From: a virus
Lineage: Duplodnaviria; Heunggongvirae; Uroviricota; Caudoviricetes
IMG/VR virus record: IMGVR_UViG_2778261667_000012
Coordinates: 1 to 37,406 of that record
Reading direction: 5' to 3' (one strand)
Length of the DNA: 37,406 bases
Part shown: in pieces, positions 1 through 12,416 of the stretch
How the letters are laid out: each line of letters opens with the position of its first letter
Numbering within the stretch: the first letter of the stretch is position 1
Program-made: the position numbers and the translations under genes
Notes under the pieces: generated by a model
The model's input: only the letters and a program-made list of their open reading frames with translations
Told to the model about the DNA's origin: nothing
The model's database searches: none

Positions 1-933
1 TCAGCCCTTAAACACGTTATAGCCGAGTTGTTTAGCGACCGATGCCACCATTTTTTGTCCGCGAACACTGTTGCCTTCTTCATCCAGCGGTGGCGAGAAC
101 GCGGCAATACCCATCACGCCAGGTACGACCGCCAGAATACCGCCGCCAACGCCGCTTTTTCCGGGCAACCCCACGCGATACGCCCAGTCACCGGAGCGAC
201 CATACAGTCCTTCCATCATCATTTCGGCCAGGATGTACGGTACATTATCGGCCTGAAGAATACGTTTTTGGCTTAGCGGATTAACACCGCCCGCCGCCAG
301 CGTCGCGCCAAGCGTCGCCAGTTCAACGGTATTGATAAGCGTGGAGCACTGACGGGTGTACACGTCGCAGGCTTCCATCGCATCGCAATAGAGGTATCCG
401 GAGGAATACAGTAGCCAGGCAATTGCGCGATTGTGGAAGTTGGTGGTCTGCTCTGACTGATTCACTTCATCAGAGAGCGCCACCTGCTCCCCAGCCAGTT
501 GTTGTTGGATGTGTAAAATCCGCTGCCAGCGTTGCTCGGCATTGTCGGCTTTGATCAGACTGGTAGTGGCGATAGCACCTGCATTCACCAGTGGCGACAA
601 CGGTTTGCCGCCATGAAGTTCTAAGGCGATGACTGAATTAAAAGGCAATCCGGTCGGGTCAGCGCCAATTTTGTCCTGAACCGCCTGCGAGCCGACATCT
701 TCCAGCGCGAGGGCTAACGTACAGACTTTCGAGATGGATTCCAGCGCAAAGCGGTAATCACTGTCACCCGCGCGATAGACGCTACCATCGCAAGTCACAA
801 TAGCCACTGCCGCCAGTTGGCTGGGGACATTCGCCAGAAAGGGAATGTAATCGGCATTTTGTCCGCCGCTCAGTGAATGATATTGGGTATATGCCTGGTC
901 CACTGCCTGCTGTAAATTTTTTGCATCTGACAT
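1..933 (-). CDS. glsA: Glutaminase (YbaS/GlsA1-type), complete gene; chromosomal flank
   Basis: 310-aa minus-strand ORF with stop at 1..3 and start at 931..933. Full-length similarity to enterobacterial glutaminase 1 as recalled (e.g. ...SKVCTLALALED..., C-terminus ...QLGYNVFKG). Confidence 0.9.
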   Translation of the reverse strand: MSDAKNLQQAVDQAYTQYHSLSGGQNADYIPFLANVPSQLAAVAIVTCDGSVYRAGDSDYRFALESISKVCTLALALEDVGSQAVQDKIGADPTGLPFNSVIALELHGGKPLSPLVNAGAIATTSLIKADNAEQRWQRILHIQQQLAGEQVALSDEVNQSEQTTNFHNRAIAWLLYSSGYLYCDAMEACDVYTRQCSTLINTVELATLGATLAAGGVNPLSQKRILQADNVPYILAEMMMEGLYGRSGDWAYRVGLPGKSGVGGGILAVVPGVMGIAAFSPPLDEEGNSVRGQKMVASVAKQLGYNVFKG

Positions 934-1201: not shown

Positions 1202-2239
1202 TTAACTACCCTCTAAAATCCCCACTTTGCCTCCAAAGTGTGGACACAATGTGGACATTCCTACAAGAGGATTATAATTCACTGCATCCAATAAATAATC
1301 AGGTGCAAAATGAGCATATGTCATTGTTTGTGAAATATCTGCGTGACCAAGAATTCTTTGTAACGCAATTATATTCCCGCCCTTCATCATAAAATGAGTA
1401 GCAAACGTATGACGCAATGCATGAGCTGCCTGACCATCAGGTAAATTAGGTTTTGCCTCTTTCATTTTTAAACGAAAAGTTTTGTAACTCACACGAAAAA
1501 GTCGACCAGATTCTCGATGCCTTACAATATTTACAACCTCCTCTGAAATGGGAACAACTCGTCGGTCGCCATTTTTTGTAAGCGTAAATATCACCCTATT
1601 ACCCACAATATTTTCCGCTTTGAGCTGATAAGCCTCACCCCACCTCGCACCAGTTGCAAGCAAGAGAACAGCAATCCGGAAATAATCACCAGTACATAAG
1701 GATAATAACCGCTTAACCTCAGACTCGGTAAAGTAAGACATCTCAGTTTTTGGCTCTTTTAAAGCAGATATTGCCTCTACAGGATTATCCCCATGAAACT
1801 CATCGATCTCAGCCATCGCCTTAAACATACCGCTCAGAGCAAAAAGATCATGGTTAATCGTTGAAGCCTTTATACCTTGCCCCAATCTATATGCCCGGTA
1901 TTCGATAAGGCATCGACCATCAATCTGGTAAATCATGGGATCCCCCATATCCTGGCAAATACAGCTTAACGCACTAAGCCTACGATTAGCGTAGTTCTTA
2001 TTACGTCCAATGAGCTGCCACCACAAAGCGATAAACTCACTCAGTCGCCGCTTGTCTGCAGGACGACTCAGGTAGTCATGGTTCTGATACTTTGCAATGA
2101 TGCTTCGTTCAAAAGCATGCGCCTCCGCTTTTCTCTCAAACTTCCGCCGGATACGCTTTCCGTCGCGCCCGCGCGGCCTTACATCCACTTCATAGCGACC
2201 ATCTTCGAGCTTCTTAACAGACACAAGAAGCCCCTCCAA
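1202..2239 (-). CDS. int: Phage tyrosine integrase
   Basis: 345-aa ORF with tyrosine-recombinase C-terminal motifs (ATGARWGEA, HALRHTFATH, LGHADISQTMTYAH). Lies next to the repressor as in the P2 C-int arrangement. Confidence 0.9.
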   Translation of the reverse strand: MEGLLVSVKKLEDGRYEVDVRPRGRDGKRIRRKFERKAEAHAFERSIIAKYQNHDYLSRPADKRRLSEFIALWWQLIGRNKNYANRRLSALSCICQDMGDPMIYQIDGRCLIEYRAYRLGQGIKASTINHDLFALSGMFKAMAEIDEFHGDNPVEAISALKEPKTEMSYFTESEVKRLLSLCTGDYFRIAVLLLATGARWGEAYQLKAENIVGNRVIFTLTKNGDRRVVPISEEVVNIVRHRESGRLFRVSYKTFRLKMKEAKPNLPDGQAAHALRHTFATHFMMKGGNIIALQRILGHADISQTMTYAHFAPDYLLDAVNYNPLVGMSTLCPHFGGKVGILEGS

Positions 2240-2293
2240 CAGTCAGTTCGCCATCCTGAAAACAAATGGTGAAAATGTAATGTTTATAAAGCG

Positions 2294-2593
2294 TTAACCA
2301 ATCTGTTTCCCGGAGGGGCCAGATTGTGTTGTCTCTGGCCCAGTGTGTGCAAGAGCCGGGGCGATCTGACCTCGGCTAGGGTCTATACGGTCATACATGA
2401 ACCAATCTTGATACTTATGGAAACGGGGATGACCAAAGAGTTTGATCGCAGCCTCCAATGACATTTTCGCCTTGCCTAGCTCATAACCGTTGTACGTACC
2501 ATAATTTACACCAATCAAATCAGCAACTTGCTTAGATTTAAGGCGTTCTGAATCTCGGATTAACTGTAGTTTTTCATGTTGTGGTATTGACAT
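2294..2593 (-). CDS. Immunity repressor, P2 C-like
   Basis: 99-aa ORF with an N-terminal HTH (SKQVADLIGVNYGTYNGYE) and a C-terminal ...SGQIAPALAH... segment resembling P2 C as recalled. Divergent from the early operon. Confidence 0.75.
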   Translation of the reverse strand: MSIPQHEKLQLIRDSERLKSKQVADLIGVNYGTYNGYELGKAKMSLEAAIKLFGHPRFHKYQDWFMYDRIDPSRGQIAPALAHTGPETTQSGPSGKQIG

Positions 2594-2716
2594 AATATAT
2601 CAGATCTCTCATTGTATACATCAATTGACACTCGCAAGCGGCGTTGACCGCTCACAACACCAAGGGCTTGCTGAGCTAAACATGCCTCAACAAGCCTCAA
2701 GCAGTGGAGTTTATCA
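2594..2716. promoter_or_regulatory. Immunity switch region (early and repressor promoters/operators), inferred
   Basis: Intergenic region between divergent C-like and Cox-like genes; contains a TTGACA hexamer (about 2624). Placed by synteny with P2, individual promoter elements not resolved. Confidence 0.35.
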
Positions 2717-3179
2717 AATGAAAGAAATGCGAGAAAACGAATTAAATATGGAAACTCATTTTTTACGTCAGTTCCCGCTAGACAACGGACGAGCTCTGCG
2801 TACCTGCAAAATGACAGAAACACAAGCTGCGCGTATCAGAGACATCAGCCTAGAAGAGCTACAAAAACAAATCTTCGCCACTCCGGAAGAGTTTGCTTAT
2901 CTAACTGGTCGCACCCTCAAATCGGTGCGCAACCTGATGGATCGTGCGCAGGTGCCAGTTCATAGAGAAGGCATGCCCGGGTCAAAGCGCCCTAAACGCT
3001 TCATCATGTTGCAAGAATACTGGAAAGCTGTTGCTCATTGCCGCGCTCTCATCACTCCAGAAGAAAAACACTACATTGATCGTCTGATGCGTGACAAGAA
3101 GACTTATCGCCGCACAACCGGTAAAGAGCATCGGGTTCTAAAACGCAATAGCATCAGTGCACTGCAGGCAGGACTATAA
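2717..3179 (+). CDS. Cox-like early regulator/excisionase-type protein (start ambiguous: 2625, 2681 or 2717)
   Basis: GGAG-type RBS about 10 nt before the ATG at 2717. Internal segment EEFAYLTGRTLKSVRNLMDRAQVPV resembles the P2 Cox DNA-binding region as recalled. First gene of the rightward early operon. Confidence 0.45.
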
Positions 3180-3181
3180 AC

Positions 3182-3595
3182 ATGAATACTGATAGCACAG
3201 ATAAAGAGCTACTGGAACGACTGGAAACCCTGAAAAACGAAAAACCACACCAGAAGCTTTTGCTGGTTTTTCCGGGCAAACCACAGGTTGAAGTCAGCAT
3301 TGACTACCACGAATTACACAGAACGTTCGCTGACCTGATGGCATTTAAATCAAAGCTTCAGAATGGCGAAGATTTGAAAGATGTCACCCTACGTCCCGAC
3401 GATGAATACGGTCATTTTTGTCGAGATGACGTCAAAGAGACGATTGGAATGATTTTAGAACCAATATACGGCGTTGCGCTCCGTTTTCCCGCCAAAGAAG
3501 TCTTTGAGCTTTATCGACAAATTTTAAGCAGTGACAACATGGTTATTGAGGTCGGAAATGTGCCAGAGAAAATCTCCGGCACTGGAGTTAAATAA
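3182..3595 (+). CDS. Hypothetical early protein
   Basis: 137-aa ORF starting immediately after the previous gene; no family recognised. Confidence 0.5.
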   Translation: MNTDSTDKELLERLETLKNEKPHQKLLLVFPGKPQVEVSIDYHELHRTFADLMAFKSKLQNGEDLKDVTLRPDDEYGHFCRDDVKETIGMILEPIYGVALRFPAKEVFELYRQILSSDNMVIEVGNVPEKISGTGVK

Positions 3596-3778
3596 TCACT
3601 CAGGAAGAATCCATGTACTTGCCTGAGGATATTTCCTTAACGCAAGAGTACGCAAGTCATTCGCGAGCTGACGAATGGTTTTTGATGGCTCCCCTTTATT
3701 CGGAGGATTGATCGGCGCTTCCCCTAACACAGAAATTGCCGCATTTAGCGCATCAATAACCTTTTTATCATAGGACAT
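3596..3778 (-). CDS. Small hypothetical protein (60 aa) on the opposite strand inside the early region
   Basis: ATG at 3776-3778 (minus) with an AAGGA RBS 5-6 nt upstream; convergent, tail-to-tail with 3182..3595. The longer 3596..4012 ORF in the track is probably an over-extension. Confidence 0.35.
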   Translation of the reverse strand: MSYDKKVIDALNAAISVLGEAPINPPNKGEPSKTIRQLANDLRTLALRKYPQASTWILPE

Positions 3779-3860
3779 ATTTATTCCTTTGTGGTTGGTT
3801 GAACACGCGCCCTTTACAGCCCCTTCAAGACTGCGGGCGGTGGAAAAATACCACAAAACC

Positions 3861-4271
3861 ATGCGCCGGGCATGGCTAAAACCCGGCACAAATTCGCAAC
3901 AGCAGCAGGATATTTTTTGTATGAAGCAACGACGTAATTCTTCACGGCAGCGATTCCGCAACGGTGCGGAACGCCATGCTAACCGTTTCGCTACCAGTGC
4001 ATCACGTAGCAACTCTCGCTACAGCCTGAGCGAAACACACGCAACGCCGGATGGCTACCCAGTAAAACAAATCGGCGAGCACGCCTGGTTGATTGAGAAA
4101 GCTGGAATCGTGGTCCACAAATGCCCACGCAATCCGTTTACTGGAAACCGCATTTTTGCACTGAGCAGCGGCGACAATCAGTTCGGGCAGGATTTCACAT
4201 TATACGAAGCACTTCGCACGGTTGATCGTCTGCTTCGCGGACAAAGTTTTATTAAACAGGTTGATTTATAA
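3861..4271 (+). CDS. Hypothetical protein with basic Arg/Ser-rich N-terminus (start uncertain: 3861 or 3921)
   Basis: Open frame with a structured-looking C-terminal half (…KQIGEHAWLIEKAGIVVHKCPRNPF…); no strong RBS, so the start is not resolved. Confidence 0.35.
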   Translation: MRRAWLKPGTNSQQQQDIFCMKQRRNSSRQRFRNGAERHANRFATSASRSNSRYSLSETHATPDGYPVKQIGEHAWLIEKAGIVVHKCPRNPFTGNRIFALSSGDNQFGQDFTLYEALRTVDRLLRGQSFIKQVDL

Positions 4272-4281
4272 CAGGTGATTT

Positions 4282-4560
4282 ATGACCAAAGAGTATGCAC
4301 AAGGTGTATTTATCCGTTTTATTGATTTTCGCGGTGAACTGTTATTACGTGCATCAGCTATTGATGCTGTAGCCCAGGCAGAAAAAAAAGCAGTTACTCA
4401 CGTTTATGCGAACAACGCGCAACTGATCGTGGAGCTTCCGTACCAGACCGTTCGCAAAGCCATTAACGAAGCTGAAAAAGCGCGCCAGGCTAATAGCGAT
4501 GAACCCTATATCGAAATTATTTGTATGGATTCAGAAGCTGAAATTAAGAAAGCAGATTAA
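4282..4560 (+). CDS. Hypothetical early protein
   Basis: 92-aa ORF in the early operon; no family recognised. Confidence 0.5.
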   Translation: MTKEYAQGVFIRFIDFRGELLLRASAIDAVAQAEKKAVTHVYANNAQLIVELPYQTVRKAINEAEKARQANSDEPYIEIICMDSEAEIKKAD

Positions 4561-4568
4561 AGGGCGTT

Positions 4569-4814
4569 GTGATGGGCAAAGAATATAAAACTCTCATTAA
4601 CAAAGCACTTGAGCGTTTTTATTTTCGCTTAAGCGCATCAGGCGCTCATGCTGAACGTGCAGCCCGTGACTCATTGACCAGGGCAATCCGGAGTCTGTAT
4701 GACGTGGCTTTTTACGCTGATGATCTGGATGCACTTAACGAACTTTCCGAGCTGATCTGTGCCGCAGAATGCGGGGAACATATTGAACCGTATAAGCTGG
4801 GGAATATTGCATGA
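4569..4814 (+). CDS. Hypothetical early protein
   Basis: 81-aa ORF, tightly packed after the previous gene. Confidence 0.5.
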   Translation: MMGKEYKTLINKALERFYFRLSASGAHAERAARDSLTRAIRSLYDVAFYADDLDALNELSELICAAECGEHIEPYKLGNIA

Positions 4815-4924
4815 GTATATTTATCTCATGGCTTGTTCTGATTATTTCGGTGGCCTGCGCCATTGGGATTATGCGAATTATTCATTCAGTAAAAAAGATT
4901 GAACGCTTTTTCACTGGTGAATAA
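4811..4924 (+). CDS. Small single-TM membrane peptide (37 aa), not in the ORF track
   Basis: ATGA start/stop overlap with the upstream gene. Translation MSIFISWLVLIISVACAIGIMRIIHSVKKIERFFTGE has a hydrophobic helix and a basic tail. Confidence 0.3.
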   Translation: MSIFISWLVLIISVACAIGIMRIIHSVKKIERFFTGE

Positions 4925-5017
4925 CGATACAAATAAAACATCAAATTAAATAAGAAAACGTGAAAACCATCCGTATTAACGGAGGTATTCGCACACGCAA
5001 ATAACGGAGATACAAAA

Positions 5018-7120: not shown

Positions 7121-7351
7121 ATGGCAAACCGCAAACAGCACCGCGCTATCGCGGAGCGTCGTCACATCCAGACTGAAATCGACCGCAGACTCACCCGCGC
7201 TGCACACATCGCCTTTATCATGCAATCCAACACATTGCACAGACTCAACAGCACTATTTCAGCCGACTACTGCGCCGCTGTATTCAGCTATCTGGCGGAA
7301 GACCTCCTGTCTCTTCAGGATCTCATCCAGCAGCAAAACAAACTCCATTAA
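7121..7351 (+). CDS. Hypothetical small protein
   Basis: 76-aa ORF with a GAGAGG RBS about 8 nt upstream. Confidence 0.3.
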   Translation: MANRKQHRAIAERRHIQTEIDRRLTRAAHIAFIMQSNTLHRLNSTISADYCAAVFSYLAEDLLSLQDLIQQQNKLH

Positions 7352-7795: not shown

Positions 7796-10618
7796 ATGAC
7801 GACAGAGTACATCAGGGACTGGCAACAACCGCGCCACGCAGTAGGACGTGAAGGAACGGAGATCCCCGCACCTGAATCCGCACTTTCCTCCTGGCTGGAT
7901 GCCTACCGGGCAGAGAACGAACGCCGCCAGGAAATGGCTGATGCGGCGTTCTCCGCCACACCGCTGGGCAACCTGATTAATAAAAGCCTGGACGCACAGG
8001 AAAAACAGGACAAAACCATCACACTGGCAGGAGACACCAGAAAGCAGGCACGCGGCGCGGTGGATGAAGCCATGGCCTCGCTGCGCCTGCTGCCGTCCTA
8101 TCTGCGCGATCCGCTTATTCGCCACCTCTCCTTCCTGCGCAAAAAACAGGAAGCTGATCGCCGGAAAGGCAAAAAGAGCTGGCAGGCTGAACGCTACGCG
8201 CGCGGAACCCTGCGCAAAATATTCGAACGCCTGGACCGCACCGACCACCGCTGGCTGACACCGGGTTATCGCTCCCTTGCCGGACACGAACGCCTGGATG
8301 ATTTGCTTTACCTCCCGCAGCTCAACAAACACCAGATACAGACGCTGGCCACCATGACGGCGGCGATGTTCAGCAGCACCTTCGAAAAACTCTGCGATGG
8401 CTTTGGCGCGACTGATGGCGAGCTGACCATGGATGTAACGCTGAAGGCGTATCAGATGCTGGCCCGCATGGCGTTACACCTGCACGCCATGCCTCCGCAT
8501 TATGACGCACTGACAACAGACAAAGACCGGAGGAACGAACCGGACACAGAACTGCTGCCGGGTGCAATCCTTCGCCTGACCTGTGCGGAATGGTGGAAAC
8601 GCAAACTGTGGCTGTTACGTTGCGAGTGGAGAGAAGAACAACTCCGCGCCGCCTGTCTGGTTTCCAGAAAAACATCGCCTTATCTGAGCCAGGACGCGTT
8701 AAGTGAGTTTCGCGCACAGCGCGAGAAAACACGCGATTTCCTGAAAAGTTTCATGCTGGAAAACGAAGACGGGTTCACGATTGATCTCGAGACAGTGTAT
8801 TACGCAGGAGTAAGTAACCCGGTTCACCGTAAGGCAGAAATGATGGCCACCATGAAGGGGCTGGAACTTCTGGCCGAAGCCCGTGGCGACAAAGCGGTGT
8901 TTCTGACTGTCACCTGCCCGTCAAAATACCACGCCACAACAGAGAACGGTCATCCGAATCCCAAATGGAACGGGGCCACCATGCGCGACTCCAGCGATTA
9001 CCTGGTTAACACGTTTTTTGCGGCGGTCCGCAAAAAACTGAACCGCGACGGCCTGCGCTGGTATGGCATCCGCACGGTGGAGCCTCACCATGACGGCACC
9101 GTGCACTGGCATATGATGGTCTTTGCTCATCCGGAAGAAATCGACGGCATCGTGGCCATCACCCGCGATATTGCCATTCAGGAAGACCGCCACGAGCTGG
9201 GTGATGACATAACTCCGCGTTTTAAGGCGGAGTACGTCGACGGCTCAAAAGGCACGCCAACCAGCTACATCGCCACCTACATCGGAAAGAACCTGGACAG
9301 CCGCGCCGTGGATGGCATCGACCCGAAAACGGGCAAGCCACGCGTTGACCACGAAACTGGAAAATCAATGACCGAGAGCGTGGAGCGCGCCATCGGCTGG
9401 GCGCGCCTTCACCGTGTCCGCCAGTTCCAGTTCTTTGGTATCCCCTCCCGTCAGGTGTGGCGTGAACTGCGCCGCCTTGCCAGCCAGATGGCACGCAACC
9501 CGGAAGGCCCACAACGGCTGAAGGATGATGCAATGGATGCGGTACTCGCTGCCGCTGATGCCGGGTGTTTTGCCACCTACATTGAAAAACAGGGCGGCGT
9601 ACTTGTTCCACGCAAGGACTACCTGATTCGCACCGCCTACGACCTCGCAGATGAGCTGAACGATTACGGCGAACAGAGCGTACAGATTTACGGGATCTGG
9701 TCGCCGCTCATCGGGGAATCCTCCCGCGTGTGCACGCACCCGGATAACTGGAAACTGGTAAGACGTAAACCTGAAGCAGAAGACAGCGTCCGCGAAAATG
9801 GTTTTGACCTTCAGGGCGGCCCTGCCGCCCCTTGGACTCGTGGCAATAACTGTCCCCGTGTACAGGAAACGGACAACAACGGGACAGAACAGCCGGAAGA
9901 ACGGCCAGCACCGTGGCCGCAGCTTCCTGACGGCGTTGATGTGGATGAATGGATGCGCTCACTGAAACGGCACAAACGCCGGGCGCTGATGCGTTCGCTG
10001 CGTGACAAACAGGCAAAAAACAGCAGTGATGAAATGCAGAACTGGTCACAGAGCCGCAAACAGCCACAGCCTTTGCCTGATAACCACGAGTTACTCGCTA
10101 AAGAATGGCGGGAATCTGCCGAATCTCTCGGCCTGCATATCGGTGAACAGCAGATGCAGCACCTGTTACGGGGCGGCAGCCTGTACGTTGACGGCAGCAT
10201 CATTGCACCGCAGGGATATGAAATTGTACGTAAACCGGATACCCGCCAGGACAGCCGAATCACGCAGCTCTGGCAACGCCTGAGCCGTAACCACGGCGTA
10301 AGCAGCACGGAGATCCGCCATAACCCGGTCGCCAGCTATCTGGAACAACTAGGGGCATCAGACCCTGAAGCCGCCGCACGCCTGGCATCCACACTTCAGC
10401 AAGACCAGAACACCATGAAAACCCCCGTTACCGTGCTTTCTGACATGCTGCGCGCCATCCGCGACGCAGAGCACGCACAGAGAATCAGTGAAACCACTGA
10501 ACGCGCCCACCGCAAAGCAGACCTGCTGCGGGGTAGCCTGACCAGTGGAAACAAAAAACAGACAGAAACGGGATTCACAAATCCCGTAAATGAGCAAAAA
10601 ACGTGCCGCGATATATGA
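7796..10618 (+). CDS. Replication initiation endonuclease (P2 gpA-like, rolling-circle)
   Basis: 940-aa ORF at the end of the early operon. Contains a VHWHMMVF HUH-type motif, and overall it matches the P2/186 A family as recalled; it has a C-terminal extension relative to P2 A. Confidence 0.8.
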   Translation: MTTEYIRDWQQPRHAVGREGTEIPAPESALSSWLDAYRAENERRQEMADAAFSATPLGNLINKSLDAQEKQDKTITLAGDTRKQARGAVDEAMASLRLLPSYLRDPLIRHLSFLRKKQEADRRKGKKSWQAERYARGTLRKIFERLDRTDHRWLTPGYRSLAGHERLDDLLYLPQLNKHQIQTLATMTAAMFSSTFEKLCDGFGATDGELTMDVTLKAYQMLARMALHLHAMPPHYDALTTDKDRRNEPDTELLPGAILRLTCAEWWKRKLWLLRCEWREEQLRAACLVSRKTSPYLSQDALSEFRAQREKTRDFLKSFMLENEDGFTIDLETVYYAGVSNPVHRKAEMMATMKGLELLAEARGDKAVFLTVTCPSKYHATTENGHPNPKWNGATMRDSSDYLVNTFFAAVRKKLNRDGLRWYGIRTVEPHHDGTVHWHMMVFAHPEEIDGIVAITRDIAIQEDRHELGDDITPRFKAEYVDGSKGTPTSYIATYIGKNLDSRAVDGIDPKTGKPRVDHETGKSMTESVERAIGWARLHRVRQFQFFGIPSRQVWRELRRLASQMARNPEGPQRLKDDAMDAVLAAADAGCFATYIEKQGGVLVPRKDYLIRTAYDLADELNDYGEQSVQIYGIWSPLIGESSRVCTHPDNWKLVRRKPEAEDSVRENGFDLQGGPAAPWTRGNNCPRVQETDNNGTEQPEERPAPWPQLPDGVDVDEWMRSLKRHKRRALMRSLRDKQAKNSSDEMQNWSQSRKQPQPLPDNHELLAKEWRESAESLGLHIGEQQMQHLLRGGSLYVDGSIIAPQGYEIVRKPDTRQDSRITQLWQRLSRNHGVSSTEIRHNPVASYLEQLGASDPEAAARLASTLQQDQNTMKTPVTVLSDMLRAIRDAEHAQRISETTERAHRKADLLRGSLTSGNKKQTETGFTNPVNEQKTCRDI

Positions 10619-10694: not shown

Positions 10695-11654
10695 ATGAAA
10701 ATTTGTATCGACGACGGCTCCACCAACATCAAGCTGGCATGGACTGAGAACGGCGAACGCCGCAACGCCATCAGCCCGAACAGCTTCAAGTCGGAATGGT
10801 CTGCGCCGTTCGGTGGCACGCAGCCCGCGAACTACATGCTTGATGGCGTGCGCTATGGTTTTGATCCGGTCAGCGACCGCTTTGTCCAGACGACCGACAC
10901 GCAATACCAGTACAGCGATGTGAATGTCATTGCCATTCATCATGCGCTGGTCAAATCAGGCATCACGCCACAGGAGGTGGATGTGGTTGTCACCCTGCCA
11001 CTGAGCGAGTATTTCGACACAAACGCACAGCCGGACATGGCCAACATCAACCGCAAAAAAGCGAACGTTATGCGCCCGGTGGAGTACCAGAACGGCGAGG
11101 CATTCACTATCCGTAACGTGCGGGTTATGCCTGAATCCATTCCGGCTGGCTTTAAAGCACTGGCTGACATGAGTCCGTTTGAATCCCTGCTGATTGTGGA
11201 TTTAGGCGGAACCACGCTGGATGTGGCAAAGGTTCAGGGACAACTGGCAGGTATCAGCCAGGTGTTTTGCGATCCACACGTAGGCGTTTCCCTGATGGCC
11301 GATGCCGTGCTGTCGGTGATGGGCACTAACGGTATGCGCACCAGTCACCACATCGCCAATACCATTATCGAACATCGCCATGATGAAGCCTGGCTGCGCC
11401 AGCACATCCACAATGACGCGCATTACGACAGCCTGATGGCGGTTATTCGTGAAAAGGAAGAAACACTGAAACAACGTGTGATCCGTGCGCTGGCTGGTTT
11501 TTCCGGTTACGGGCGGGTGATGGTTGTCGGTGGAGGGGCGGAGATTGTGGCACCCGCTATCCGCGAAGCCTGCGGAGTTAATGCGACTTTCATCGCGGAC
11601 GGGGTGCCACAGTTTGCTCTGGTTAATGGGCTGTACGCAATGGATAAGGAGTAA
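10695..11654 (+). CDS. parM: Actin-like plasmid segregation ATPase ParM/StbA
   Basis: 319-aa ORF. N-terminus MKICIDDGSTNIKLAW… and motifs …QYSDVNV…, …VMPESIPAG…, …LIVDLGGTTLD…, …VMVVGGGAE… match R1 ParM closely as recalled. Confidence 0.9.
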   Translation: MKICIDDGSTNIKLAWTENGERRNAISPNSFKSEWSAPFGGTQPANYMLDGVRYGFDPVSDRFVQTTDTQYQYSDVNVIAIHHALVKSGITPQEVDVVVTLPLSEYFDTNAQPDMANINRKKANVMRPVEYQNGEAFTIRNVRVMPESIPAGFKALADMSPFESLLIVDLGGTTLDVAKVQGQLAGISQVFCDPHVGVSLMADAVLSVMGTNGMRTSHHIANTIIEHRHDEAWLRQHIHNDAHYDSLMAVIREKEETLKQRVIRALAGFSGYGRVMVVGGGAEIVAPAIREACGVNATFIADGVPQFALVNGLYAMDKE

Positions 11655-11658
11655 ATCA

Positions 11659-11973
11659 ATGACGACACCAACCAGACGAATAAGTTTCTATCTGAAGCCC
11701 GCCGTCGTCAAGAGCGAACGGGAGGCGTGCAGTTACCTCGACAGCCTGCCAGCCTCCGAACGCAGCCGTGCACAACGCGCGGCCTTTCTGGCGGGACTGG
11801 CACTCATAAAACGCGCCCCCGCACTGGCGTACTCGCTGGCAGAATGGTCGAGCGATGAAATCCGGTTACCCCCACAGCTGGCGCTCCCGGAGAAACCGGC
11901 ACAACCAGCAACGAAGAACGACAACGCTGCACAGCAGATGAAAAAGAACATTCAGGCTTTTTTTCCTGAGTAG
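11659..11973 (+). CDS. parR: ParR-like centromere-binding protein (start revised from the track's 11524)
   Basis: ATG at 11659 with an AAGGA RBS, 4 nt after the parM stop. …SLPASERSRAQRAAFLAGLAL… resembles the R1 ParR ribbon-helix-helix region as recalled. Confidence 0.7.
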   Translation: MTTPTRRISFYLKPAVVKSEREACSYLDSLPASERSRAQRAAFLAGLALIKRAPALAYSLAEWSSDEIRLPPQLALPEKPAQPATKNDNAAQQMKKNIQAFFPE

Positions 11974-12021: not shown

Positions 12022-12044
12022 ATACACTGAAAGGGCTGTTGATA

Positions 12045-12416
12045 ATGAAAGAACTGAATAAAAGCAAAATTATATCCATCATTTCTGAAATGGAAGACAT
12101 TATTAATCGTGAAAACATGACATCAGAACAATTACTGAGTTGTGCAATTATTATTGATGAGCGCAATAAAAAAATTCAAAGACTGGCATCAGGGCGATCC
12201 CTGCGCCTGAAAGAGCAACACTTAACTTCATGCAATTCGCAATATCGGGACGGTAAAAAACTATATTGTTCATTTTGCGGAAAATACCAGACTGAAGTGG
12301 AGAGGCTCATTGCAGGGCCTTCTGTTTATATATGCGATGAATGTGTTGATTTGTGTGTGGATATTATTAATGAGGGCAAATCAGACGCCGGAGATAAAAA
12401 CAACAATACAAATTAA
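12045..12416 (+). CDS. Stand-alone ClpX N-terminal zinc-binding-domain protein with an unknown about 70-aa N-terminal domain
   Basis: C-terminal …[39 protein letters not shown]… is near-identical to the ClpX ZBD (Cys4 ligands present), but there is no AAA+ domain. The gene is markedly AT-rich. Start taken at the ATG at 12045 (the track's 12039 is a TTG). Confidence 0.7.

Follow-up and report, generated by a model that had tools for sequence, protein, structure and literature searches.

A putatively prophage-expressed, reverse-oriented accessory cassette in the early operon of a P88-like prophage

The window analysed here (the whole 37,406-nt stretch of DNA) is a P88-like prophage (Peduoviridae, P2-family) that adjoins glsA, and its early operon is interrupted by a small gene on the opposite strand, gene B. 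We interpret positions 3560–3889 on the minus strand as a self-contained, reverse-oriented accessory cassette (moron) that is expressed from the prophage and silenced by convergent early transcription, a reading to which we give a probability of roughly 55%. Read leftwards, the cassette would consist of a bistable hairpin with a U-tract, an extended -10, a structured leader that is rich in CA and carries a Shine-Dalgarno sequence, ORF B and a strong 3' hairpin. The initial annotation had likened the region to a second small regulatory switch, or a toxin-antitoxin or anti-defence module, formed by three genes. What survives of that description is a genuine minus-strand gene and an accessory insertion into the early region, whereas the toxin-antitoxin pair, the switch and the three-gene unit do not. 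The features of the locus are as follows.

2294..2593: HTH repressor (Pfam HTH_3), divergent from the cox-like gene at 2718..3179
2718..3179, plus strand: cox-like first early gene, alternative start at 2682; context, outside the cassette
3182..3595, plus strand: gene A, accessory early protein of 137 aa (ATG at 3182, TAA at 3593-3595)
3560..3582, minus strand: 3' hairpin of B, 10-bp stem and 3-nt loop, 13 nt past the B stop and inside the tail codons of A
3596..3778, minus strand: gene B, the cassette cargo, 60 aa (ATG at 3778, stop at 3598-3596)
3785..3788, minus strand: Shine-Dalgarno AGGA of B, within the CA-rich leader, read from the sequence
3804..3842, minus strand: leader hairpin ('hairpin1'), between the -10-like element and the ribosome-binding site
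3845..3853, minus strand: TGnTAnnnT, extended -10-like putative B promoter (TG at 3853-3852, TATTTT at 3850-3845)
3859..3889, minus strand: conserved element with two mutually exclusive GC-rich helices, then UUUUGUGG (3858-3851)
Helix b of that element, minus strand: GUGCCGGG (3889-3882) pairs with CCCGGCGC (3870-3863), -15.6 kcal/mol
Helix a of that element, minus strand: CCAUGC (3875-3870) pairs with GCAUGG (3864-3859), -8.5 kcal/mol
3921..4271, plus strand: DUF4761 early protein of 116 aa with an Arg/Ser-rich (basic) N-terminus; backbone gene

In a lysogen, in which the early promoter Pe is repressed, the cassette promoter would be unopposed and B would be made from the prophage, possibly to bind a protein target in a role of the lysogenic-conversion or exclusion type. 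Once the prophage is induced, early transcripts would cross B in antisense on their way to the genes from DUF4761 through gpA, and collision and antisense pairing would together shut B off. The 5' element and the flanking phage genes could act as homology arms that allow cargo swapping.

The early genes follow one another on the plus strand in the order cox-like, A, DUF4761, a 92-aa ORF, DUF4754 and on to gpA at 7796, with B opposed to all of them, and A, B and DUF4761 are real genes with the coordinates and layout originally proposed. The first early gene has only weak Cox similarity (PF10743, E=0.14; phrog_575, E=0.0047), and an identical protein is annotated as 153 or 165 aa in L018 and L019. 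The product of 3921..4271 matches the full length of Pfam PF15958 (DUF4761; model 1-105 of 105, E=1.8e-69, 230.9 bits against a cut-off of 27) and is 98% identical to P88 gp04, encoded directly after cox. The cox gene is followed directly by DUF4761 in phage P88 and in about 1,400 E. coli genomes, with no module between them. We read approximately 3182-3900 as an insertion because P88 has DUF4761 immediately after cox, and the proposal that an accessory module entered the early region is thereby borne out. The module is lacking in P88 and most P88-like prophages and is present in 1-2 of 5,426 complete E. coli genomes; DUF4761 occurs in 1,403 of these genomes and B in one. Homology to P88 starts only about 20 nt ahead of 3921, and the start at 3861 once suggested for the basic protein falls inside the conserved non-coding element and is abandoned. 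DUF4761 is a backbone gene found with or without B and is no partner of it; a literature search for DUF4761 gave no result.

Gene B has the good ribosome-binding site ascribed to it, with AGGA 6 nt upstream of the ATG, and the plus-strand frames across it are closed. Its homologues, a family without a name, form about 15 clusters at 50% identity, are all 55-61 aa long and share the motif hIxxLK..LExxP..(I/V)R(D/E)L..K(Y/F)P. Against the Yersinia orthologue dN/dS is 0.13 at a dS of 0.9-1.4, and 0.06 in the N-terminal half, where dS is saturating. A 60-aa antisense ORF alone could be due to chance, and both strands of the window have numerous ORFs of 30 aa or more; it is the conservation of B that identifies it as a gene rather than the antisense artefact that the initial annotation had allowed for. 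At the level of codon substitutions, this demonstrates that B is coding and under purifying selection.

The 5' end of the cassette is formed by the conserved element, in which both helices have compensatory changes (A-U/G-C/C-G and U-A/C-G in helix a; G-C 45 and A-U 9 in helix b) and wobble pairs that are possible in minus-sense RNA only. RNAalifold on a MAFFT alignment recovered stem a alone because the leader hairpins do not align. At 3851-3875 on the minus strand the covarying GC-rich stem a runs directly into the U-tract UUUUGUGG, as in an intrinsic terminator, and we infer that the bistable hairpin and U-tract at 3851-3889 are a candidate terminator- or insulator-like structure. Helix b is the more stable of the two and would block formation of the tighter terminator a. 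A terminator-like hairpin placed upstream of a promoter has no evident transcript to stop.

The element, 45 nt in all, hardly changes between genera, Escherichia, Xenorhabdus and Pectobacterium among them; the search patterns used for finding the copies account for part of this apparent invariance. Copies come from 15 species genomes, at least 100 viral contigs and isolated phages that belong to other Peduoviridae genera; P2 and 186 have none. An Rfam scan of 2200-5000 on both strands (E up to 1) assigned it to no family, and a literature search with its sequence gave no result.

The minus-strand site at 3845-3853 has the make-up of an extended -10 of the sigma-70 type, combining TG at -15/-14 with TAnnnT and conserving the critical positions, which points to a putative promoter for B. 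The T, A and last T are invariant in an alignment whose search pattern left them free, and across 18 different hexamers 59 of 60 sequences have T as the sixth base. The site is the top promoter-like site in 41 of 75 sequences and is present in 51 of the 68 that were found with no downstream constraint. A generic promoter and terminator scan reported no promoter at the cassette, but it is uninformative here because it also missed Pe and Pc.

Between this site and the start codon, the minus-sense leader folds better than expected (z=-3.05, compared with -0.6 in plus sense), and in the P88-type copy the leader hairpin reaches -20.9 kcal/mol in minus sense versus -13.3 in plus sense. Most classes have a hairpin of different sequence at this position, the TAGGAT class has none, and the strand preference is mixed across classes. 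The outer leader stem is conserved in several classes, and if transcription starts about 7 nt past the -10, the outer part would be untranscribed. All cargo types are preceded by a CA-rich stretch with AAGGA. In the window, UUUGUGG is predicted to pair over a long range with CCACAAA, but other classes do not keep this pairing and it was dropped; a by-eye check for a LexA box, an Ogr-type TGT-N12-ACA dyad and a CsrA site found none that was consistent.

Cassettes of this kind occur in P2-like prophages of many Enterobacterales genera, where at least 14 families of unrelated small ORFs, all provided with a Shine-Dalgarno sequence, follow the 5' element at a near-constant spacing. The orientation is invariant: 84 of 84 loci have the same sense as int and 65 of 65 are opposite to gpA, so that the cassette always points towards C/int. 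Cargo proteins are 39-160 aa and matched no PADLOC model; four alternative cargos searched against Pfam, NCBIfam and PADLOC gave nothing usable, with only weak, non-significant PADLOC hits. The scans of A, B and the cargos yielded DUF4761 and one uninformative name, the 'ECs1072 family', and ECs1072 appears in the literature in a single paper, as a microarray listing from a different prophage context. The int-to-gpA interval is a minor accessory and defence hotspot of P2-like phages and holds 8% of P2 defence systems (PMC13586616). Published transcriptomics of BTP5, a P2-like prophage of Salmonella D23580, covers no such cassette. A role for the element as a junction between cassettes in arrays was rejected, with only one clear tandem (L051) and the two copies in L081 split by an early-sense gene.

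A broader reading, which we put forward only tentatively and think doubtful, is that the 45-nt element and the usual -10 are an undescribed portable control module of Peduoviridae. A bistable RNA and a convergent promoter, locked in antisense within the early operon, would then gate early-operon and lysogeny transcription and serve as a shared expression-and-recombination platform through which phages from different enterobacterial genera exchange dozens of unrelated small 'dark' proteins, the B family included.

The cassette could instead be mainly regulatory with an incidental cargo, either by holding back leaky early transcription (DUF4761 through gpA) in antisense or by feeding C/int as pE does in 186; we regard this as unlikely, although it is the best placed of the alternatives. 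It would account for the fixed orientation towards C/int and against the early operon, for an element that stays near-identical across genera while cargo is freely exchanged, and for copies with no obvious cargo (L020 and the first element of L081). The covarying, mutually exclusive helices also suggest a switch, and with no strong terminator after B, transcription might conceivably run on into antisense A and cox. However, most P88-like prophages, P2 and 186 lack the element, so the switch does not depend on it, purifying selection acts on the cargo ORFs, whose ribosome-binding sites are good, and the conserved 3' hairpin right after B argues that the transcript ends or is stabilised there. 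In phage 186, pR and pL interfere convergently and the leftward pE is activated by CII. Like that system, the cassette has a leftward (putative) promoter inside and against a rightward early operon, directed towards repressor and int. Unlike it, the putative promoter is followed by its own ORF and 3' hairpin, no CII-like activator site was identified at the cassette, and neither 186 nor P2 has the element. Convergent interference has been described (PMC5001618).

Returning to the accessory cassette, profile searches and structure prediction, which the initial annotation had proposed, named DUF4761 and gave AF2 folds for A and B but no family for either. The AF2 model of B (pLDDT 68) has helices at residues 3-20 and 33-49 joined by a 12-residue Pro-rich loop, and B is predicted to be a cytoplasmic helix-loop-helix protein, not a helix-turn-helix one. 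It matches no HTH family and the model lacks three helices with a tight turn, which speaks against B as an HTH regulator or second regulatory switch. Pfam, NCBIfam, PHROG, PADLOC, PDB sequence profiles and a fold search gave no match for B, and no known defence, exclusion, anti-defence or inhibitor family was matched in the database and fold searches. Over 130 bp that span the C-terminal two thirds of B, identity falls to 73-88% in a prophage that is otherwise at least 98% identical, and dN/dS in codons 33-60, the C-terminal half, is about 0.6 between E. coli alleles.

Such a divergent patch resembles an arms-race interface, and B might be an anti-defence or host-takeover protein that is made from its own constitutive promoter right after DNA entry, before or alongside early transcription. 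A small, soluble protein with two predicted helices and no enzymatic features would suit that role, as would the autonomous promoter-like signal. We nevertheless consider it improbable, given that known temperate-phage anti-defence genes normally lie in early operons in sense orientation, that early transcription would oppose B and that B has no similarity to any known inhibitor.

Gene A encodes a conserved N-terminal domain of about 115 aa followed by a variable tail that is predicted to be disordered; AF2 gives an alpha/beta fold (pLDDT 70, pTM 0.66) with residues 127-137 below 50. Its homologues form 33 clusters from E. coli, Salmonella, Citrobacter and Yersinia, their C-terminal tails vary with the downstream cargo, and A is found beside at least four cargos other than B. 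The same sources that were searched with B (Pfam, NCBIfam, PHROG, PADLOC, PDB sequence profiles and fold search) gave no match for A. The cassette occurs without A in most lineages, and relatives of B are likewise present in other phage lineages that lack A. A and B are tail-to-tail as first described, with abutting stop codons and zero intergenic bases, and they are adjacent in 14 of 14 B-carrying P88-like loci because the 3' hairpin of the cassette sits inside the A tail. In minus sense this hairpin reads GUGCCGGAGA-UUU-UCUCUGGCAC (-17 kcal/mol) and is followed by a weak U-tract (AUUUCC). In Yersinia its stem is kept via wobble changes, at -23.3 kcal/mol in minus sense versus -14.9 in plus sense. 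A is a separate accessory early gene whose final codons merely run into the cassette 3' hairpin.

The constant adjacency and abutting stop codons are what a toxin-antitoxin or toxin-antidote pair of B with A, or of B with DUF4761, would have in its favour, and like a type II system A and B are two small adjacent genes on a mobile element. We judge such a pair very improbable. Unlike in type II systems, A and B are convergent and are not co-inherited outside one lineage, and B and DUF4761 are divergent, neither being a layout for co-transcription. No toxin, antitoxin or DNA-binding family matched A or B, and a PADLOC-DB 2.0 scan of A, B and DUF4761 gave zero defence-model matches. The pairing is further opposed by the other partners of A, by the B relatives without A and by DUF4761 being in 1,403 genomes versus one for B, the same distributions that break up the proposed three-gene unit, and the adjacency is accounted for by the hairpin. 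That B is a chance antisense ORF beside a non-coding element that alone matters would fit the number of ORFs of its size that arise by chance in the window, but is effectively refuted by the substitution ratios, fixed length, conserved motifs and conserved Shine-Dalgarno sequence of its homologues.

In HK97 and lambda-like phages, Hendrix and colleagues reportedly defined morons as autonomous accessory transcription units. Like morons, the cassette is present or absent at one position among relatives (P88 being without it), is flanked by its own promoter-like and hairpin signals, and is placed for possible expression from a repressed prophage. Unlike them, it lies antisense inside an early lytic operon and not between late genes, its 5' control is a near-invariant 45-nt module shared by many unrelated cargos across genera, and its 3' hairpin overlaps the coding tail of a convergent gene. 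Earlier work describes old, tin and Z/fun, which are lysogenic-conversion genes of P2, and the variable hotspots that P2-like phages have (PMC9122126, PMC13586616). Like those genes, the cassette is accessory and exchanged between otherwise similar P2-family prophages; unlike them, it is outside the main gpA-gpQ and tail hotspots and has cargo without a PADLOC match.

Framed as a toxin-antitoxin pair or second switch, the locus is nothing unusual, since variable prophage regions commonly hold uncharacterised accessory genes of this sort. The part worth keeping is the architecture, in which one short element is shared by at least 14 small, mutually unrelated proteins, all carried in one and the same antisense position. 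The element is a sequence handle for candidate lysogenic-conversion, exclusion and anti-defence proteins that domain-based defence finders miss, and the cassette may offer a compact natural case of convergent transcription in a lysis-lysogeny operon that is testable with reporters.

The 5' element also resembles attenuators, with mutually exclusive helices upstream of an ORF, a 3' helix followed by a U-tract and compensatory changes in both helices; unlike in attenuators, neither a promoter upstream of it nor a leader peptide, a ligand or a partner protein was identified. The helices precede the -10-like element and so may lie outside the cargo mRNA altogether.

The prophage in this window, a relative of phage P88, has glsA (1..933, minus strand) as its neighbour, and the main genes of its early region are as follows.

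1202..2239, minus strand: integrase
2294..2593, minus strand: HTH repressor
ending at 3179, plus strand: cox-like gene, heading the early operon
7796..10618, plus strand: gpA-type replication endonuclease, early operon

On the plus strand the cox-like gene is followed by a 137-aa ORF (3182..3595, gene A), a gap that holds a minus-strand 60-aa ORF (3778..3596, gene B), 3921..4271, a 92-aa ORF, DUF4754 and further genes as far as gpA. The three small ORFs are present as the initial annotation described, with AGGA 6 nt ahead of the ATG of B and abutting stop codons of A and B, and the product of 3921..4271 does have an Arg/Ser-rich N-terminus. The alternative start proposed at 3861 is not credible, because it lies inside a conserved non-coding element and homology to P88 starts only about 20 nt before 3921; from about 3915 onward the DNA is 98.8% identical to that of Escherichia phage P88 (Xuanwuvirus, Peduoviridae). 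The three genes had also been read as one module, which does not hold, given that 3921..4271 encodes a DUF4761 protein (PF15958, E=1.8e-69) of the backbone that is far commoner than A or B. In P88 the DUF4761 gene directly follows cox, and DUF4761 DNA occurs in 1,403 of 5,426 complete E. coli genomes, compared with two for A and one for B. Judged by this gene order and these counts, approximately 3182-3900 represents inserted DNA in a variable slot, and DUF4761 belongs to the backbone. Accessory hotspots have been described in P2-like phages, and in a 2026 survey 8% of P2 defence systems lay between integrase and primase (PMC13586616).

The inserted cassette (3560-3889, minus strand) is an orientation-locked unit that combines conserved 5' and 3' structures best read minus-sense with a constrained small ORF and exchangeable cargo. 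The 140 bp separating B from DUF4761 are conserved irrespective of cargo, and their core (plus-sense AAATACCACAAAACCATGCGCCGGGCATGGCTAAAACCCGGCAC, 3845-3895) is also found in other Peduoviridae genera, namely in Salmonella phages SEN4/5 and Yersinia phages vB_YpM_115/117 and vB_YenM_42.18; in the annotations of SEN5 and vB_YpM_115 a small gene on the minus strand has the element immediately upstream. Successive pattern scans, with overlapping results, recovered it from 48, 109 and 73 IMG/VR contigs, and it is present in representative genomes of 15 species. The genera with the element are Escherichia, Xenorhabdus, Pectobacterium, Pantoea, Trabulsiella, Brenneria, Erwinia, Izhakiella, Kosakonia and Symbiopectobacterium. 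Nearly invariant and about 45 nt long (minus-sense 3889-3845 in the window), the element recurs in P2-like prophages of many Enterobacterales, and further sites among the comparison loci are L021 2501-2552, L023 2501-2539, L022 3501-3545 and others within L024-L176. Read minus-sense, an ORF with a Shine-Dalgarno sequence follows at a near-fixed distance; these reverse-oriented cargo ORFs (39-160 aa) fall into at least 14 unrelated families, and the B-like ones include SEN5_34, a 59-aa protein in L054 and a 58-aa TTG-start protein in Pantoea and Izhakiella. Gene A is absent from most element-bearing loci. In 84 of 84 loci the cargo shares the sense of int, which lies downstream; in 65 of 65 it is opposed to gpA, which is located behind the element. 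Two cassettes with separate cargos stand in tandem in L051 (~2848-3440), an arrangement in which the second cassette's element could act as a terminator for the first, and L081 (10735-11662) has two element copies with an early-sense 241-aa ORF between them, the first copy being without obvious cargo. The element has no match in Rfam, and in the literature, for which coverage was incomplete, we found no paper containing its sequence, none mentioning DUF4761 and no description of the element or of the A and B families.

The predicted structures of the cassette are given here, each read minus-sense.

3889-3882 with 3870-3863, minus-sense: helix b, GUGCCGGG pairing with CCCGGCGC
3875-3870 with 3864-3859, minus-sense: helix a, CCAUGC pairing with GCAUGG
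3560-3582 (plus coordinates), minus-sense: 3' hairpin, 10 bp, 13 nt past the B stop, -17 kcal/mol

Helices a and b share nucleotides and are thus mutually exclusive; their calculated energies are -8.5 kcal/mol for a and -15.6 kcal/mol for b (MFE -19.0), and a U-tract, UUUUGUGG, lies directly 3' of helix a. Covariation was assessed in 60 unique family sequences obtained with a search pattern that placed no constraint on the arms of helix a, invariance within the pattern regions being by construction. One pair of helix a is A-U (50 sequences), G-C (8) or C-G (1), another is U-A (35) or C-G (21), and the closing pair is C-G (45) or U.G (15), a wobble possible only minus-sense; in helix b the unconstrained pair is G-C (45), A-U (9), G.U (2) or U.U (4). 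The paired fractions of both helices were not reached in 1000 column shuffles, which is not a probability because the sequences are related and shuffle controls overstate significance. The hairpin plus U-tract ahead of the putative promoter resembles a leftward terminator or insulator.

Immediately past the helices lies TGTGGTAnnnT. In the first alignment its T, A and last T are invariant though outside the search pattern; the last T is found in 59 of 60 sequences and across 18 different hexamers, TATAGT among them, and one contig (L072) has TATAAT. With nothing constrained downstream of helix a, the motif is present in 51 of 68 unique sequences, and several of those lacking it have TGnTAnnnT elsewhere (for example, CATGGTATTCT or TGATAATCT), so that hairpin and -10 look like separable modules. 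A fixed TG and three critical -10 positions, with the rest free, are as expected of a working extended -10 promoter, here putative. In one class (L150, L155, L165 and L172) two direct repeats, TTCCACAGTCAA, which could be operator-like, lie between the a/b hairpin and a TGATAATCT -10-like site. A leader hairpin, located in the window at 3842-3804 (-20.9 kcal/mol minus-sense vs -13.3 plus-sense), occurs in most classes but is missing from the TAGGAT class, and its strand preference is mixed overall; the whole window leader folds with z=-3.05 minus-sense vs z=-0.6 plus-sense.

We infer that the cassette would be transcribed from its own putative promoter while the early promoter Pe is repressed, that is, in the lysogen, and that early transcription would oppose it after induction, given that an early transcript has to run through B in antisense before it arrives at the replication genes. 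Such a pattern would make B a moron-type gene, probably with a protein-binding product. A less probable alternative is that the convergent promoter is chiefly regulatory, acting as a brake on the early operon or as a pE-like feed into the repressor gene C and int. This reading fits the element's unvarying orientation and very high conservation but not its absence from most relatives.

B is a real gene, and conservation excludes a chance ORF. Every member of five close clusters is exactly 60 aa long, and comparison with the Yersinia orthologue gives a dS of 0.9-1.4 and a dN/dS of 0.13 (N-terminal half ~0.06, C-terminal half ~0.2). A profile search of 1.84 billion representatives added about a dozen B-like clusters of 55-61 aa, plus one 79-aa call, none of them named or with a Pfam domain; the common motif is hIxxLK..LExxP..(I/V)R(D/E)L..K(Y/F)P. 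The AlphaFold model, of moderate confidence (pLDDT 68), has helices at 3-20 and 33-49 joined by a Pro-rich loop and no meaningful structural neighbours. Between the window and L015, both at glsA, identity is at least 98% over 2231-3550 and 3731-3909 and 73-88% over 3611-3730, a ~130-bp patch spanning the C-terminal two thirds of B that resembles the outcome of allelic replacement or of diversifying selection acting on the second helix. This localised divergence is all that suggests an anti-defence protein, which we consider unlikely.

The 3' hairpin is kept in Yersinia through changes that pair only minus-sense (-23.3 vs -14.9 kcal/mol), and its weak U-tract suggests that it may be a partial terminator or a stabiliser. 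It lies within the last codons of A, which explains the abutment of A and B as well as the cargo-dependent sequence and predicted disorder of A's tail. Gene A is intact and adjoins B in all 14 B-carrying loci (window, L001 and L004-L015). Its family comprises 33 clusters with a conserved ~115-aa N-terminal domain and variable tails, and its model, again of moderate confidence (AlphaFold, pLDDT 70, pTM 0.66), is an alpha/beta fold with a disordered tail, for which no structural neighbour was found. Other members are followed by a 78-aa minus-strand gene, a 155-aa 'ECs1072 family' minus-strand gene, 162-aa plus 41-aa minus-strand genes or a 117-aa plus-strand gene, and no match to a functionally characterised family was obtained for any of their products. 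The toxin-antitoxin pair initially suggested is very improbable, being contradicted by gene orientation, co-occurrence and the absence of any relevant domain. The NCBIfam 'ECs1072 family phage-associated protein' (151-160 aa) is an alternative cargo of the same cassette type (L002 4047-4514, also L024, L043, L045, L048 and L134), and in L002 its gene shares 50 bp at the 3' end with the extended tail of the A homologue.

Further along the early operon, a 76-aa ORF (7121-7351) directly 5' of the 121-aa ORF preceding gpA, as in P88 gp14, has a weak match to the Derepression family (PF25738, E=1.3e-4, under the cut-off). The gpA-to-portal hotspot carries a plasmid-type partition pair (10695-11973), here within an integrated P2-like prophage and with no PADLOC match. 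Its products are an actin-like segregation ATPase of the ParM/StbA type (PF06406, E=1.8e-82, plus PF21523) and a StbB-like plasmid stability protein (PF10784, E=1.9e-24). A ClpX-type C4 zinc finger (PF06689, E=2e-19) is encoded by a 125-aa ORF (12039-12416) in the same hotspot.
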